A stretch of 64,000 nt of DNA from NCBI GenBank assembly GCA_036488085.1, contig DASXHZ010000029.1, positions 42,860-106,859 of the forward strand, read 5' to 3'. This document shows, piece after piece, positions 3,086-56,451 of this stretch (within the stretch, counting starts at the first letter, position 1; every line of letters begins with the position of its first letter). Origin of the DNA: Thermoanaerobaculia bacterium. Its GTDB lineage: Bacteria; Acidobacteriota; Thermoanaerobaculia; Gp7-AA8. Position numbers and translations under genes: made by a program. The notes beneath the pieces were generated by a model. The model was not told the origin of the DNA, did not search any database, and saw nothing but the letters and a program-made list of their open reading frames with translations.

Positions 3086-3116
3086 GGGCGCGGGCTGTCA
3101 GCCCGCGCCTTTTTGT
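3086..3116 (+). terminator. Rho-independent terminator downstream of VWA-OmpA operon
   Basis: GGCGCGGGC-tgtca-GCCCGCGCC hairpin followed by TTTTTG. Confidence 0.6.
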
Positions 3117-4321
3117 CAGTTCTGCGCTGGCGCGAGGGCATCAGCCACCGCCTCGGCTACGAGGCGATATCCGGCCGGTGAATAGTGCCCGTTGAAGAGC
3201 GATCCGACGCCATGCTGTTTCGCATAGGCAACGAGACGGGGGGTCGGGTCGATGATGTTGAATCCGCTCAACCGCTTCAGGTGTGCTTGCCAGGGATCGG
3301 GTTGTCCGTTCATCACACTCGTGATCGTGTCCTGGAGGGGCAGATAGACGAGGAAGAATGGCTTGCCGCTCCGCGTCACTTCGTCGCGGTAGCGTTCGAG
3401 CAGAGCGACCGTCACATTCGTTGACTCGCCGTACGGACCGAGGGCGGAAGCGGTGCGCGCCGCATCGGCAGCTTCTTTCTTCGCGACGAAACCGTCGACG
3501 AGCGTACAGATCAATTTGCTCGGCGCGAACCATCGACGCTGGTACTTGCTCCCGTAATACAGCTCGTAATGTGCGAGAGGCCACCTATCGAAGTTGCGCA
3601 AAGTTTTAACGACATCCTCGGGCGCCGGCGTCGGATCGTCGATCAATTGCAACGCACCGTTGCGGAGAAGGAATCTCGGCTTTGCGAACGGAATCCCAGT
3701 GCCCGGAAACGCCACGATCCGAAAAAGCGTGACGTCGCGCGTCAAGTTCTCCATTTGAAGGCCCTGCACGACGACGCTCGCGTCGAAGCGCGCAGCGTCT
3801 CGCGCGTAGCGTAAGTAGGCCTGATCGAACCCGTATCCGCCGACGGCGAAGTCGAGTACCTCGGCATTCTTGCCGCGCTCTTTGAGCAGACGCTCGACCT
3901 GTCGGGCGGGTGAATCCTCGAGACCGGCATTGAACCCGAACATGAACGAGTCGCCGGTCCAGATCACCCGATACGTTCCCGGCCGCATTGCGGCGGTGTA
4001 GTCGTCGTTGGAGCGCAAACCGTACGCGTTGACGCAATAGAGGTGATCGTCGGTACACGCTCGCGGACGGTTGGTCCACCCGAGCTGCGGGTCGTACATC
4101 ATGAAACCGTTCGGATTGGCGTTGTATTGGTCGATCAGCCTCTTCGCTTGGGCTACCGGCAGCGCGTATGGACGAACCGGCTTGTCGCGGAAGTAGAACG
4201 TCCCATCGGCGTCGAAATGACCCCGCATCCGGACGTAAAGTTCGCCCACTCCGACGGCGAGCGCGAGGGAGAGGAGAAAGAAAACGAGGCTGAAGATCGA
4301 TGCCCGACGCTGGTTCGGCAT
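3116..4321 (-). CDS. SGNH/GDSL-type hydrolase family protein (AlgX/AlgJ/DltD-like), N-terminal membrane anchor
   Basis: N-terminal TM segment. GDS block WTGDSFMFG. Overall SGNH architecture. Last gene of the carbamoyltransferase operon. Confidence 0.7.
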   Translation of the reverse strand: MPNQRRASIFSLVFFLLSLALAVGVGELYVRMRGHFDADGTFYFRDKPVRPYALPVAQAKRLIDQYNANPNGFMMYDPQLGWTNRPRACTDDHLYCVNAYGLRSNDDYTAAMRPGTYRVIWTGDSFMFGFNAGLEDSPARQVERLLKERGKNAEVLDFAVGGYGFDQAYLRYARDAARFDASVVVQGLQMENLTRDVTLFRIVAFPGTGIPFAKPRFLLRNGALQLIDDPTPAPEDVVKTLRNFDRWPLAHYELYYGSKYQRRWFAPSKLICTLVDGFVAKKEAADAARTASALGPYGESTNVTVALLERYRDEVTRSGKPFFLVYLPLQDTITSVMNGQPDPWQAHLKRLSGFNIIDPTPRLVAYAKQHGVGSLFNGHYSPAGYRLVAEAVADALAPAQN

Positions 4322-53594: not shown

Positions 53595-53661
53595 GTCAAC
53601 ATCAGAACGAAGCCGGGTATACTTCCCGCACAGCATCTCCCCTTAAATCTGGAGGACACCC

Positions 53662-54705
53662 ATGGCCGAGCGGTCGAATACCGCCGGGTTGATCGAGTTT
53701 GCGATCAACTTGAAACGAAGTTCACACCAACTGCTCAGTTGCCTTGACGTGGTTTACGGTGCGTTCCTCTCATATTTTCTCTGGGTCGTTGGTCAGACGA
53801 TTACTTCCTATTTTGAGCGGCCAACTGCTCCGGCCGGCTTTAAATTAGTGTGCATGTCGTTGATGTTTCTCTTCATCATCGAGGACTTCAGGGACGTGAA
53901 GCTCATCACGTCCATCTGCGGCTATCACCTCTCGTCATTTCGATTCTTCCTCGACATCGCCATAGTCCTTATACTTTTTACGACTACTCTTTTCCTGTTT
54001 GGCAAGAACCCCAATGCGCAACCTAACAGAAACTTTCTGTTTTCCTTTGCCATCGTTTTCTTTCTGTGCACAGCTTGGGCTCTTCTGCTCACGAAAGACA
54101 AACGTGACGTTCCGCCAAACTACAGTGTCGCCGTCGCTGCATCTCACTTTGTCGTGGGGTGCACTTGGCTGGTTCTCTGGGCGTTCGTTTCGCAGGCCGG
54201 AGTGCTCTGGCGACTCCCGCTCGTGAGTCCGGCCGTGCGCCTCATCATGATCGCCGTGTTTTCCATCTACTACATCATGGCGTCATGGCTCTTCGGATCG
54301 CTACGACGTCGCGGCATACCAGTGGACGACTACGGCGAGATGATCGTGCCGAAAGTAGCGCGAAACGTCGTCGCGCTCTTCCGGTCGGCGGCAGGCGTGT
54401 TCCGCAGCGGTCTCTCACGCGGAGAGCCTAGATGGAGATGGTTTCGCGGTCAGCCCCGCTCGACTTCTAATCACTACGTCGTCGTGGCGCAATTTGCTGA
54501 CGGCACCTCGACGCCGATGCAGCTCACCGACTATGTCAACCTTCAGGTACGCCGCGGTCACCACTGTGTTTATGTAACTGAAGACGGCGCCGCGCATGAG
54601 GGTGACGGAGCTACAATTCGGTTAACGGCCACCCCAGAACAGGACCAAAAGGCTCAGTTTCTCGTACAAGAGAAGAATCCGCCTTCTGAAAGGCATCGGA
54701 CATGA
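53662..54705 (+). CDS. Multi-TM membrane protein of unknown function with ~100-aa C-terminal soluble domain, low-GC island
   Basis: GGAGG RBS 8 nt upstream. About six hydrophobic helices. Local GC ~50% versus ~68% genome-wide. No recognisable domain. Confidence 0.55.
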   Translation: MAERSNTAGLIEFAINLKRSSHQLLSCLDVVYGAFLSYFLWVVGQTITSYFERPTAPAGFKLVCMSLMFLFIIEDFRDVKLITSICGYHLSSFRFFLDIAIVLILFTTTLFLFGKNPNAQPNRNFLFSFAIVFFLCTAWALLLTKDKRDVPPNYSVAVAASHFVVGCTWLVLWAFVSQAGVLWRLPLVSPAVRLIMIAVFSIYYIMASWLFGSLRRRGIPVDDYGEMIVPKVARNVVALFRSAAGVFRSGLSRGEPRWRWFRGQPRSTSNHYVVVAQFADGTSTPMQLTDYVNLQVRRGHHCVYVTEDGAAHEGDGATIRLTATPEQDQKAQFLVQEKNPPSERHRT

Positions 54706-54872
54706 GTACGTTGTATTATTTTGTTTTCGCTGTTGGCCTTGTCGGGATCGTCCTTGGTTTCGTCGGCCTTCACCTCAGCCTTCGGCGTTTCGAGGACGAT
54801 TTCCACGACGAAGTGCGCCATCATGCCGACGGCGGCAATCAGATGACCCTCCCCCGCCTCCAGATAAAGAAC
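54702..54872 (+). CDS. Small (56 aa) single-TM protein overlapping the upstream gene (ATGA)
   Basis: ATG 54702 overlaps TGA 54703-54705. MSTLYYFVFAVGLVGIVLGFVGLHLSLRRF... Below the ORF-table size cutoff. Confidence 0.35.
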
Positions 54873-54877
54873 AAGGG

Positions 54878-56098
54878 CTAGCGCATCGCCTGTTTTTCGA
54901 ACCAGCGCTTGAGCGGGAGCGTCTTCGCCAGCGCGGCGCCGTGGAGAAAGTGCTCGCGGGCGCGTTCGGTGTCGCCGGCGCGGCGGGAGAGCTCGCCGAG
55001 GGTGGAGTAGAGGGGGATGTAGTCGCGGAGGTCGTTCGCCAGCGGGATCGCGGCGGCGAGGCCGTGCTCCGGACCTTCGACCATCGCGAGCGCCACGGCG
55101 CGATTGAGCGCGACGACCGGCGACGGGGCGATCTGCATCAGGTCGTCGTAGAGGCCGAGAATGTGCGGCCAGTTCGCCGGCTCGTTGAGATGCTCGACGG
55201 CGATCGCGGCTTCGATGTGGAAGCGCGTGAGCTCGTCGCCCGCCGCGGCGAGTCCGAAGTGCTGCAGGCCGCGTGCGATCGCGTCGCCGTCCCACTGCGA
55301 GCGGTCCTGCTCGTCGAGCAGCAACATGTCTCCCGCGGCATCGACGCGGACGGCGAGACGGGCGCGCTGGAGGTGCATCAGCGCCGCGAGCGCATGAATC
55401 TTCGGCAACGATGTCGCCTCATGCGCCGTCAGCTCCTCGGTGAGTCGGATCGCCTCCTCGACGAGATCGCGGCGCACGAGGTCGTCGCCTGCCGTCGCGG
55501 AGTAGCCCTCGTTGAACATCAGATAGACGACGTCCAGGAGAGAGTCCAACCGCCGCGGCAGTTCGTCGCGCGACGGGAGCTCCAGCTCGATCGTGTTCTC
55601 GCGGAGGAAGCGCTTCGCGCGGACGAGCCGCTGCGCGATCGCCTCGGGCTTCGCGAGCAGCGCCCGCGCGATCTCGTCGACGCCGAAGCCGCAGACGCAT
55701 TTGAGCGTCAGCGCGAGCCGCGACTCCGGCGGGAGCTGCGGGTCGCAGCACATGAGCATCATCTGCAGGTCGTCGTCTTCGAGCTCGTGCGAGAAGCGGC
55801 CGCCGGTCTCGGCGCGCGCGGTGAAGGCGTCGACGATGGCGCGCTCTTTCTCGCGAAAGTTGGTGTCACGGCGCAGGCGGTCGATGGCGCGGTTCCGTGC
55901 GACGCGAAAGAGCCACGCGGCGGGATCGTCCGGCACGCCGCCGAACGGCCACTGCGCCAGGGCGGTTGCCATCGCCTCCTGCACGACGTCCTCGGCGAGA
56001 TCGAGCCGATCGGCGCCGAGGACGCGTGTCAGGGTGGCGGTGATCCGTGCCGCGTTGCGGCGGAACAGGTGATCGACCAGCGCCGGAACGTCGCTCAC
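54878..56098 (-). CDS. RNA polymerase sigma factor (ECF-type with large C-terminal extension), YciI-associated
   Basis: Region 2 (DVVQEAMATALAQW...WLFRVARNRAIDRLRR) and region 4 (LPPESRLALTLKCVCGFGVDEIARALLAKPEAIAQRLVRAKRFL), followed by a ~230-aa C-terminal domain. Confidence 0.8.
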   Translation of the reverse strand: MSDVPALVDHLFRRNAARITATLTRVLGADRLDLAEDVVQEAMATALAQWPFGGVPDDPAAWLFRVARNRAIDRLRRDTNFREKERAIVDAFTARAETGGRFSHELEDDDLQMMLMCCDPQLPPESRLALTLKCVCGFGVDEIARALLAKPEAIAQRLVRAKRFLRENTIELELPSRDELPRRLDSLLDVVYLMFNEGYSATAGDDLVRRDLVEEAIRLTEELTAHEATSLPKIHALAALMHLQRARLAVRVDAAGDMLLLDEQDRSQWDGDAIARGLQHFGLAAAGDELTRFHIEAAIAVEHLNEPANWPHILGLYDDLMQIAPSPVVALNRAVALAMVEGPEHGLAAAIPLANDLRDYIPLYSTLGELSRRAGDTERAREHFLHGAALAKTLPLKRWFEKQAMR

Positions 56099-56451
56099 GG
56101 ACGGCGCATGTCCTCCACTTCGCGGATCTCGACGGTGCCGAAGTCGAAGTGCGGGCAGTCGCGGACGAGATCGATCACCTCGTCGTAGTTGTCGGCCTCG
56201 ATCGCGAAGTAGCCGCCGAGGATCTCCTTCGTCTCCGTGTATGGGCCGTCCATCACCACGATCTTCGAGTCGTCGCGGCGGAGGACGCGGCCCTGATGGT
56301 CGCGAAGCTTGTCGCTCGCGACGTACTTGCCTGTCTTGCGGAGCTTCTCGCTCCAGGCGCCGTAACGCGCGATGAGGTTCTGGATCTGTTCGGGGCTGAG
56401 GTTGTCGAGGCCGTGTCCGTCGCCGCGGAGGAGTAAGAGGTATTTCGCCAT
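56095..56451 (-). CDS. YciI-like (YCII/DGPF-related) protein
   Basis: MAKYLLLLRGD... 118 aa. Canonical partner upstream of this sigma class. ATGA overlap. Confidence 0.8.
   Translation of the reverse strand: MAKYLLLLRGDGHGLDNLSPEQIQNLIARYGAWSEKLRKTGKYVASDKLRDHQGRVLRRDDSKIVVMDGPYTETKEILGGYFAIEADNYDEVIDLVRDCPHFDFGTVEIREVEDMRRP

Follow-up and report, generated by a model that had tools for sequence, protein, structure and literature searches.

The 64,000-nt window analysed here (a stretch of a Thermoanaerobaculia genome, soil Acidobacteria) contains two overlapping genes, which code for a protein with six transmembrane (TM) helices and for a small single-pass partner. Our preferred interpretation, which is held tentatively, is that they form an accessory membrane module of two genes, which belongs to an undescribed family and moves horizontally, and that this module is channel-like with a likely role in biological conflict.

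The features of the locus are listed in Table 1. An earlier note on this DNA had described a 347-aa protein with about six TM helices, a C-terminal domain of ~100 aa and a GGAGG ribosome-binding site, located between an amidohydrolase gene and a sigma-factor gene. This description agrees with the open reading frame (ORF) call, with AF2 and hydropathy (a C-terminal domain of ~95 aa) and with the flanking genes, which code for an Amidohydro_3 protein and an ECF-type sigma factor with DUF6596. The overlapping single-TM ORF of that note is also present, with its ATGA overlap and one TM helix, but it has 59 aa rather than the 56 aa given. The promoter candidate lies in the 67-nt spacer 3' of the amidohydrolase stop (one site, with 0.4 expected in shuffles). 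At its 3' boundary, the module has zero intergenic space before the sigma-factor gene (minus strand). No terminator-like site was found at the 3' end of the module, and an Rfam search of the locus gave no match.

Table 1. Coordinates of the two-gene module and its signals in the window
Feature	Position	Strand	Remarks
Sigma-70-like promoter candidate (TCAACA-16 nt-TATACT)	53596..53623	+	consensus match only
GGAGG ribosome-binding site	53651..53655	+	6 nt 5' of the ATG of the 347-aa ORF; read from sequence
Six-TM gene	53662..54705	+	347 aa; long form of the proposed new family; ORF call and homologues
TM core	53722..54309	+	residues ~21-216; six helices (AF2, hydropathy)
C-terminal soluble domain	54421..54702	+	residues 254-347
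ATGA	54702..54705	+	overlap of the 347-aa and 59-aa ORFs
Small partner ORF	54702..54881	+	59 aa, single-pass; ORF call and homologues
CTAG palindrome	54878..54881	.	stop of the small ORF (+) overlaps stop of the sigma-factor gene (-)

In the six-TM protein, the TM core is followed by an amphipathic helix (residues 224-253) and the C-terminal soluble domain. According to the positive-inside rule, its topology is predicted to be N-in/C-in. Eight residues are invariant in ten family members (Y38, D75, Y88, R94, D98, W139, L143 and Y154). The family shares a motif at the start of TM1 (hhD[VL]xYG[AIL]xxSY), another at the end of TM2 ([IV][IV]ED[FY]) and a third at the start of TM3 (SSFRFxxD). The AF2 model has a pLDDT of 80-96 at residues 20-210. 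Its input consisted of 10 sequences only, the pTM is 0.64, and the C-terminal domain is modelled poorly.

Among billions of proteins, about 16 relatives were found. A single-TM small ORF is located directly 3' of the six-TM gene in 11 of the 12 distinct loci, which bears out the two-gene membrane module proposed in the earlier note. At locus L001, the six-TM homologue is 43% identical and is overlapped by a 64-aa ORF. Locus L005 has a 58-aa small ORF with a GTGA overlap, locus L009 has a 35-aa small ORF that starts 10 nt 3' of the large gene behind a GGAGG, and a small single-TM partner is also present at L004. There are short-form relatives, which lack the C-terminal domain (L010, L011, L103, L104, L105 and L106), and all of them have a downstream single-TM ORF. 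Overlaps of the ATGA/GTGA type occur in the window, L001 and L005, while gaps of 10-199 nt are seen at other loci; an SD-like purine-rich stretch precedes the small ORF in most loci. Conservation of both ORFs in other genomes rules out chance ORFs: they are genuine genes that are kept as a pair. The homologues are thus clearly not core housekeeping proteins devoid of the small partner, the outcome that would have spoken against the module: they are rare and patchy, and the partner is there in 11 of 12 loci.

The small partner of the window has one TM helix (residues ~7-25), followed by the motif RRFEDDF on the predicted cytoplasmic side. Its counterpart in L001, the 64-aa ORF at the same position, shares 39% identity with it. 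The same architecture, a TM helix and R[RK]hE[DEQ]DF, is found in the partners from L005 and L009. Across the family, the partner motif follows the clade of the large protein, being R[RK]hE[DEQ]DF, G[IV]R[HY]DM[KR][KR]M or [FW]LD[KR]R[KN]Q, and the small partner co-diversifies with the six-TM subunit. Its ORF is predicted to be translationally coupled to the six-TM gene via the ATGA overlap.

The tight coupling of a small hydrophobic ORF to a polytopic membrane protein is also what a toxin-immunity or bacteriocin cassette would look like, with the small peptide being toxic or exported and the six-TM protein providing immunity or processing. This was among the readings offered in the earlier note, and one relative (L104) is near an RHS toxin. 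We consider it very unlikely. Neither a leader nor a double-glycine motif was found in the small proteins. In these proteins, basic residues come after the TM helix; by the positive-inside rule, this suggests that they stay in the membrane as N-out/C-in anchors and are not exported. No gene for an ABC exporter or for processing is conserved in the neighbourhood, and the six-TM protein lacks the CPBP/Abi (PF02517) signature: no member has a match at E<=1, and the conserved motifs differ from EExxxR, FxxxH and HxxxB. In addition, the gene order is large-then-small, and most bacteriocin-immunity pairs have the opposite order.

The earlier note had found no recognisable family, and this holds at family thresholds for Pfam, PADLOC, PHROGs and NCBIfam, none of which has a match for the module proteins. 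PADLOC-DB v2 gave no matches at E<=10 for either protein of the window and none at E<=0.1 for P0004, P0005, P0007, P0008 and P0011. No relatives of the six-TM module were found in GTDB representative genomes or IMG/VR, nor in PLSDB plasmids or INPHARED phages when queried with the long and short forms. A PDB sequence search with three profiles and the C-terminal domain, and a search of the BFVD viral folds, also gave no relatives, and a metagenome scan returned only duplicates of already known loci. The family thus appears to be previously undescribed, with a rare and patchy distribution. Two candidates were discarded. A 492-aa repeat protein (P0006), in which six stretches match residues 278-329, was judged to have a repeat-inflated score and to be no homologue, and it was left out of the alignments. 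Membership in Pfam 8xMP (PF24838) was indicated for P0005 only, with 19.5 bits against a cutoff of 30, and was dropped; a literature search on "8xMP" gave unrelated matches only.

The two-gene region has 54.4% GC (minimum 46% in 300-nt windows), compared to a window mean of 64.6% and 67-70% in the flanks. Among all 1242-nt windows, it has a z of -4.3, and only two are lower in GC. GC3 is 0.64 for the 347-aa gene and 0.68 for the 59-aa gene, versus 0.87-0.91 in neighbouring genes. Low GC as a by-product of the hydrophobic amino-acid make-up is rejected because the 347-aa protein, when recoded with host codon usage, would still have 64% GC and a GC3 of 0.91. The remaining membrane proteins of the window have a GC3 of ~0.90. 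The GC deficit comes mainly from codon choice. In most loci, the six-TM gene is lower in GC than the remainder of its own locus, and non-host codon usage is seen in both Thermoanaerobaculia copies (window and L001). The sliding-window and codon checks proposed in the earlier note thus confirm a composition that is not like the average. Its foreign island stands as to low GC and foreign codons; the contrast of ~50% versus ~68% was overstated, being 54 versus 65-69%.

The pair is an accessory insertion, and the two conserved genes on its sides enclose a variable slot. Their convergent amidohydrolase/PfkB junction is retained in about 26 related Thermoanaerobaculia genomes, none of which has a homologue of the pair. 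Their slot is empty or contains an NTP_transf_5/AbiEii-like nucleotidyltransferase, an AraC gene with a membrane protein, or other cargo. The pair occupies this slot only in the window genome and in the L001 genome, which are not nearest relatives according to a PfkB comparison. Since a 43%-identical copy occupies the same slot in a different genome, the acquisition is not recent. Horizontal acquisition, as claimed in the earlier note, is in agreement with the foreign codons and with the presence/absence pattern relative to the ~26 genomes. The locus does not add mobility genes or flanking repeats to this: there is no integrase or transposase between the NAD kinase and PfkB genes, and no convincing direct-repeat pair or att site was found that brackets the module. 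The junction is a cargo hot-spot of Thermoanaerobaculia, where AbiEii-like nucleotidyltransferases, an AraC cassette, a pair of ECF sigma and YCII genes or the six-TM module can be found. The phylum has hardly any genetics, and the junction could be mined for further accessory genes.

The module immediately adjoins the ECF-type sigma gene, and anti-sigma factors are typically single-pass membrane proteins. A membrane pair that regulates the adjacent sigma factor as an anti-sigma system is, however, extremely improbable. The sigma gene is convergent with the module, so that the two are not co-transcribed. No sigma factor is encoded at any other family locus. The sigma factor carries a C-terminal DUF6596/TPR extension and is accompanied by YCII, and ECF sigma factors with this layout are regulated by their own extension. 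The reading is effectively refuted, and was rejected, because L001 has the pair but no sigma gene, with PfkB directly next to the pair.

We infer the functional class of the module from genomic context only. The search for homologous pairs in defence islands, which the earlier note had suggested, was successful at L103, where the pair is located between PDC-S06 (E 4e-219) and AbiEii (E 6e-49), both within 2.5 kb, with a Dam-type methylase near. At L104, the pair is on an element with an integrase, Replic_Relax, a DUF87 ATPase and the RHS toxin. HerA/mad8-like ATPases are encoded near the module at L104 and at L006 (as a neighbour gene), and the surroundings at L106 include an HTH_31 and a CapP-like gene. 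Housekeeping-looking neighbours are found at L004 (GatD, GlnA) and L105 (a two-component system). By raw count, roughly four of about eight informative loci have a conflict context. From the company kept, a defence or toxin role is plausible. The earlier note had taken the module for a signature of abortive-infection, toxin-immunity or bacteriocin-immunity cassettes; the defence island at L103 and the integrase/relaxase element at L104 are in line with this, but homology to known Abi, toxin-antitoxin, bacteriocin-immunity or PADLOC families is absent.

Alternatively, the six-TM protein may be an accessory ion channel or transporter to which the partner contributes as a small auxiliary subunit. 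The module would then serve ordinary physiology (K+/H+ or osmotic homeostasis in soil) and would have spread horizontally as a niche-adaptive gene. We regard this as unlikely, though it is the alternative to be taken most seriously. The extreme rarity and patchiness of the family would be unusual for a useful homeostatic channel. The defence-island and mobile-element contexts (L103, L104 and L106) and the persistence of non-host codons in both Thermoanaerobaculia copies also argue against it.

As a lead, TMEM175 is the fold that the six-TM model seems to resemble most; a Foldseek search against PDB gave no relatives and did not recover TMEM175. TMEM175/DUF1211 potassium channels (bacterial CmTMEM175, 5vre; MtTMEM175, 6hd8) also have a six-TM subunit, and the AF2 model and hydropathy suggest a likeness in size, in N-in/C-in topology and in a polar network at the cytoplasmic face. 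In TMEM175, such a network anchors the subunit interfaces, and an RxxxFSD motif is described as essential (PMC7141809). Both families have an acidic residue at the cytoplasmic start of TM1, with small or hydroxyl residues at +4 and +8 (register FSDGxxAxxxT). A permissive hhalign path with the TM-only profile is colinear over the six TMs and places D29 on the Asp of FSD, at a probability of 0.34%. The differences are substantial. Of RxxxFSD, the Arg, Phe and Ser are absent from the six-TM family, the Arg position being Q/E/N/S, and only the Asp and the +8 Ser/Thr correspond. Also absent are the Trp/His of TM2 (WxNHH) and the Asn of TM3, which take part in the interface network of TMEM175 and are invariant (W61, H64 and N82) in the comparison set of eight annotated plasmid TMEM175 proteins. 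At the Ile constriction of TMEM175 TM1 (position D+5), the family has mostly Ala and a few Ile/Leu, in a register that is devoid of statistical support. Compared with TMEM175, there is an additional amphipathic helix and C-terminal domain in the module, and a conserved single-pass partner is not annotated beside the eight plasmid TMEM175 genes inspected. PF06736 gave no Pfam match at E<=1 for any of the ten six-TM members, and hhalign of the family against TMEM175 detected no profile similarity (probability 0.2-0.3%). On these grounds (hhalign, motifs), membership in TMEM175 was rejected, and the likeness is kept only as a lead at the fold level.

In the preferred reading, the module is probably an effector of a channel-like kind that is regulated by its small subunit. 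The invariant polar cluster (D75, Y88, R94, D98, W139 and Y154) would be located at the cytoplasmic membrane face of the six-TM protein, which would oligomerise in the manner of the TMEM175 fold to form a channel-like pore. The co-translated N-out/C-in partner may bind to the cytoplasmic face through its charged juxtamembrane motif, as an obligatory regulatory or auxiliary subunit, and the cytoplasmic C-terminal domain of the long form may act as a sensor or gate. The module would have its role in conflict, as a phage-defence system that depolarises the membrane or as a toxin/antitoxin-like pair.

The same D/R/D/Y/W cluster could be the active site, at the cytoplasmic leaflet, of a membrane-embedded enzyme (e.g. 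for lipid or envelope modification) with a small stabilising subunit. This is quite improbable. Neither Pfam and NCBIfam nor the PDB sequences show a similarity to an enzyme family, the loci have no metabolic partner gene in common, and the best structural match of the model seems to be a channel.

With respect to a channel-like conflict module, there are parallels to membrane-effector Abi and defence modules (RexAB; the TM effectors of CBASS, Pycsar and retrons), which are likewise small operons with a polytopic membrane protein. Atypical composition and an occurrence in variable slots, defence islands and mobile elements are further common traits. By analogy, membrane depolarisation is a plausible output of the module. 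In contrast to those systems, it has no PADLOC homology and no cyclase, reverse transcriptase or nuclease sensor. The task of sensing would fall to the small partner or, in the long form only, to the C-terminal domain. A literature search found no papers that join TMEM175 with anti-phage activity.

It is tempting to speculate, as a rather improbable extension, that the module represents a new two-component channel class. Its TMEM175-fold pore would be gated by an obligatory single-pass micro-protein, joined in the long form by a cytoplasmic sensor domain, and the module would move via defence hot-spots as a self-contained Abi/defence effector. If it is a channel-type effector with a micro-protein subunit at all, the module would be a new and very compact membrane-acting system in the defence/toxin repertoire, and it would provide a first accessory-gene context for the TMEM175-like fold. 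As the family is extremely rare, the practical importance is limited.

Channels and transporters with single-pass micro-protein subunits are known, e.g. KdpF with KdpABC and KCNE with KCNQ1. These have no sequence relationship to the module. The analogy lies in a tiny protein with one TM helix that is encoded together with a polytopic transport-type protein and probably assembles with it. The layout is also toxin/antitoxin-like: from the overlaps and gaps, the two genes are predicted to be co-transcribed and translationally coupled.

The low-GC region between an amidohydrolase gene and a sigma factor gene very probably encodes a genuine accessory membrane module of two subunits (coordinates in the table). 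The earlier note had described a 347-aa multi-TM protein behind a GGAGG motif, overlapped by a 56-aa ORF. The large ORF and the GGAGG are present as described, and both hydropathy and the AF2 model give six TM helices plus an amphipathic helix (residues 224-253) and a C-terminal domain of ~95 aa. The ATGA overlap also exists and couples the two genes translationally, but the small ORF codes for 59 aa. Domain matches (Pfam) confirm both neighbors: an Amidohydro_3 protein gene lies upstream, and a convergent ECF-type sigma factor gene (Sigma70_r2/r4_2 and DUF6596), followed by a YCII protein gene, lies downstream. Loop charges (positive-inside rule) suggest an N-in/C-in topology for the 6-TM protein.

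Coordinates of features in the window and at two loci from other genomes (L103, L104)
Feature	Position	Strand	Basis
6-TM membrane protein gene, 347 aa	53662-54705	+	ORF read from sequence
GGAGG, upstream of 347-aa ORF	53651-53655	+	read from sequence
Small ORF, 59 aa, start within ATGA overlap	54702-54881	+	ORF read from sequence
CTAG palindrome common to stop codons of small ORF and sigma gene	54878-54881		sequence
Sigma (DUF6596, TPR-like C-terminus)/YCII gene pair	54878-56451	-	
Stand-alone RelA_SpoT-domain protein, 231 aa	25295-25990	-	PF04607, E 7e-15
401-aa protein	3116-4321	-	weak GDSL-lipase match below Pfam cutoff
PDC-S06 candidate-defense ATPase	L103:3114-5702	-	E 4e-219
AbiEii toxin	L103:9472-11022	-	E 6e-49
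Partner, 42 aa, single-TM, missing from source annotation	L104:7732-7860	+	

The region is essentially the lowest-GC patch of the 64-kb window. The contrast reported in the earlier note (~50% within ~68% GC) thus holds, but not its figures: GC is 54.4% against a window mean of 64.6% (z = -4.3, with an sd of 2.4% among window stretches of equal length). GC3 is 0.64 and 0.68 for the two ORFs and 0.87-0.91 for neighboring genes. The deficit is mostly codon choice, because rewriting the same protein in host codons gives 64% GC and a GC3 of 0.91; two other membrane proteins in the window have a GC3 of ~0.90. In most loci of the family, the 6-TM gene is lower in GC than the remainder of its locus.

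Neither protein matches any Pfam, NCBIfam, PADLOC or PHROG model at family thresholds, in line with the earlier view that no family is recognizable. Searching 5.8 billion clusters with a word index returned one homolog of the 347-aa protein besides itself; phmmer, run exhaustively over 1.84 billion representatives, returned ten proteins besides the query, and a profile built from short members added six further relatives. No relative was found in phage, plasmid, IMG/VR or GTDB-representative collections. One of the ten phmmer proteins, P0006 (492 aa, metagenomic), was set aside as a repeat artifact. It has six near-identical ~57-aa repeats (QQHVNFVDARGHVCELVWKDGSGWGFTDLTG...), and its match to residues 278-329 (E 1.6e-10) is probably a repeat-inflated score on a short beta-hairpin-like segment. 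This very small family comprises a long clade with the C-terminal domain (P0001-P0005, 347-433 aa), short clades A and B (~230 aa each) and one divergent, AT-rich member (P0011). Within the scope of the libraries and searches used, family and pairing are undescribed; small membrane operons located in variable islands are, as a kind, already familiar.

Directly after the 6-TM gene and on the same strand, 11 of 12 distinct loci have an ORF of 33-70 aa with one N-terminal TM helix. The partner at L001 (64 aa, ATGA overlap) is 39% identical to that of the window; the others overlap by GTGA (L005, 58 aa), follow a 10-nt gap with GGAGG (L009, 35 aa) or lie 45-199 nt downstream (L004, L010, L011, L103, L105, L106). 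The partner at L104 is homologous to that of L103 (44 aa), with the common motif GVWLD[KR]RNQ. Only P0004 (L006-L008) has no convincing small partner. The partner's juxtamembrane motif varies with the clade of the large protein: R[RK]hE[DEQ]DF in the long clade, G[IV]R[HY]DM[KR][KR]M in short clade A and [FW]LD[KR]R[KN]Q in short clade B. Such co-diversification would be expected for physically interacting subunits. It is very improbable that the two genes form a peptide toxin/immunity cassette.

In L001, a 6-TM homolog (43% identity) occupies the same slot: the upstream amidohydrolase has a C-terminus 68% identical to that of the window, and the convergent PfkB kinase (76% identical) follows the pair directly. 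This pair is likewise GC3-poor (0.74-0.75 against 0.90-0.92). The sigma/YCII genes are missing there, which effectively refutes an anti-sigma function. With PfkB as probe, ~35 Thermoanaerobaculia loci were fetched from GTDB species representatives; in ~26 of these, amidohydrolase and PfkB are convergent neighbors at variable spacing, and none of these slots has a 6-TM homolog. The slot contains no gene in eight genomes (19-111 bp) and is 180-360 bp long in five. Ten genomes (L024, L027, L029, L030, L035, L044, L046, L049, L052, L061) carry a ~200-aa nucleotidyltransferase with an NTP_transf_5 match, a weaker AbiEii match and lowish GC3 (0.6-0.79); L053 has a truncated remnant of it, and one genome has an AraC regulator with a membrane protein. 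The junction behaves like a hot-spot for cargo genes. Judged by PfkB identity, the genomes of the window and of L001 are each nearer to pair-less genomes than to one another, so that the pair either entered twice or was lost many times; it is accessory under both histories. No repeats, integrase or tRNA mark an insertion at the window locus, which is therefore not a fresh, scar-bearing one.

The sigma/YCII pair has a host-like GC3 (0.90) and is also missing from the slot of the ~26 related genomes. It is shared only with L023 (PfkB 93% identical), where the contig ends within the sigma gene.

At L103 (short clade B), the pair (P0010, short form) lies in a defense island, between a full-length PDC-S06 protein and an AbiEii toxin, with a Dam-type methylase nearby at the contig edge. 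The L104 pair belongs to an element that also encodes a phage-type integrase, Replic_Relax, a methylase and a DUF87/HerA-like ATPase; an RHS toxin lies 2 kb from the pair. A HerA/mad8-like ATPase adjoins the 6-TM gene at L006, and L106 has a CapP-like gene and an HTH_31 gene among numerous small ORFs. The neighborhoods of L004, L005 and L105 show no defense or mobile signal. This guilt by association, in a locus sample too small for statistics, is suggestive, and a conflict role is plausible but somewhat less likely than not. A physiological accessory channel is rather unlikely.

Eight residues are invariant over ten members (Y38, D75, Y88, R94, D98, W139, L143, Y154); given the predicted topology, nearly all map to the TM2-TM3 loop or to those ends of TM2-TM5 that face the cytoplasm. 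We propose that the 6-TM protein oligomerizes into a channel-like pore, and that the charged juxtamembrane segment of an N-out/C-in partner docks on the polar, cytoplasmic D75/R94/D98 cluster as gate or assembly factor. In the long form, the C-terminal domain would sense a cytoplasmic cue, and the output would be ion leakage and depolarization in defense or a TA-like conflict. This composite is plausible, a little short of an even chance; that the protein is a channel is, taken by itself, doubtful. That the 6-TM protein is a membrane enzyme, with the small protein as its subunit, is improbable.

TMEM175 was considered as a parent family, using eight annotated genes fetched from plasmids and aligned. 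Profile-profile comparison gave a probability of 0.2%; with permissive settings, a colinear path through six TMs placed D29 on the FSD Asp, though at a probability of 0.34%. The defining features (RxxxFSD motif, TM2 Trp/His, TM3 Asn, isoleucine gate; PMC7141809) are absent, save the Asp and a Ser/Thr at +8, and the protein is therefore outside this family. It may have a TMEM175 fold, the channel analogy resting on one structural method, and may, by that analogy, be a pore-forming oligomer with a rigid cytoplasmic polar network.

Low-GC DNA occurs elsewhere in the window as well. One patch (0.55-0.59 against 0.65), probably the first island of the earlier note, contains the RelA_SpoT-domain gene, whose product resembles small alarmone synthetase/toxSAS-type toxins. 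The gene for the 401-aa protein lies within a mildly low-GC stretch (~0.59 over 1 kb).
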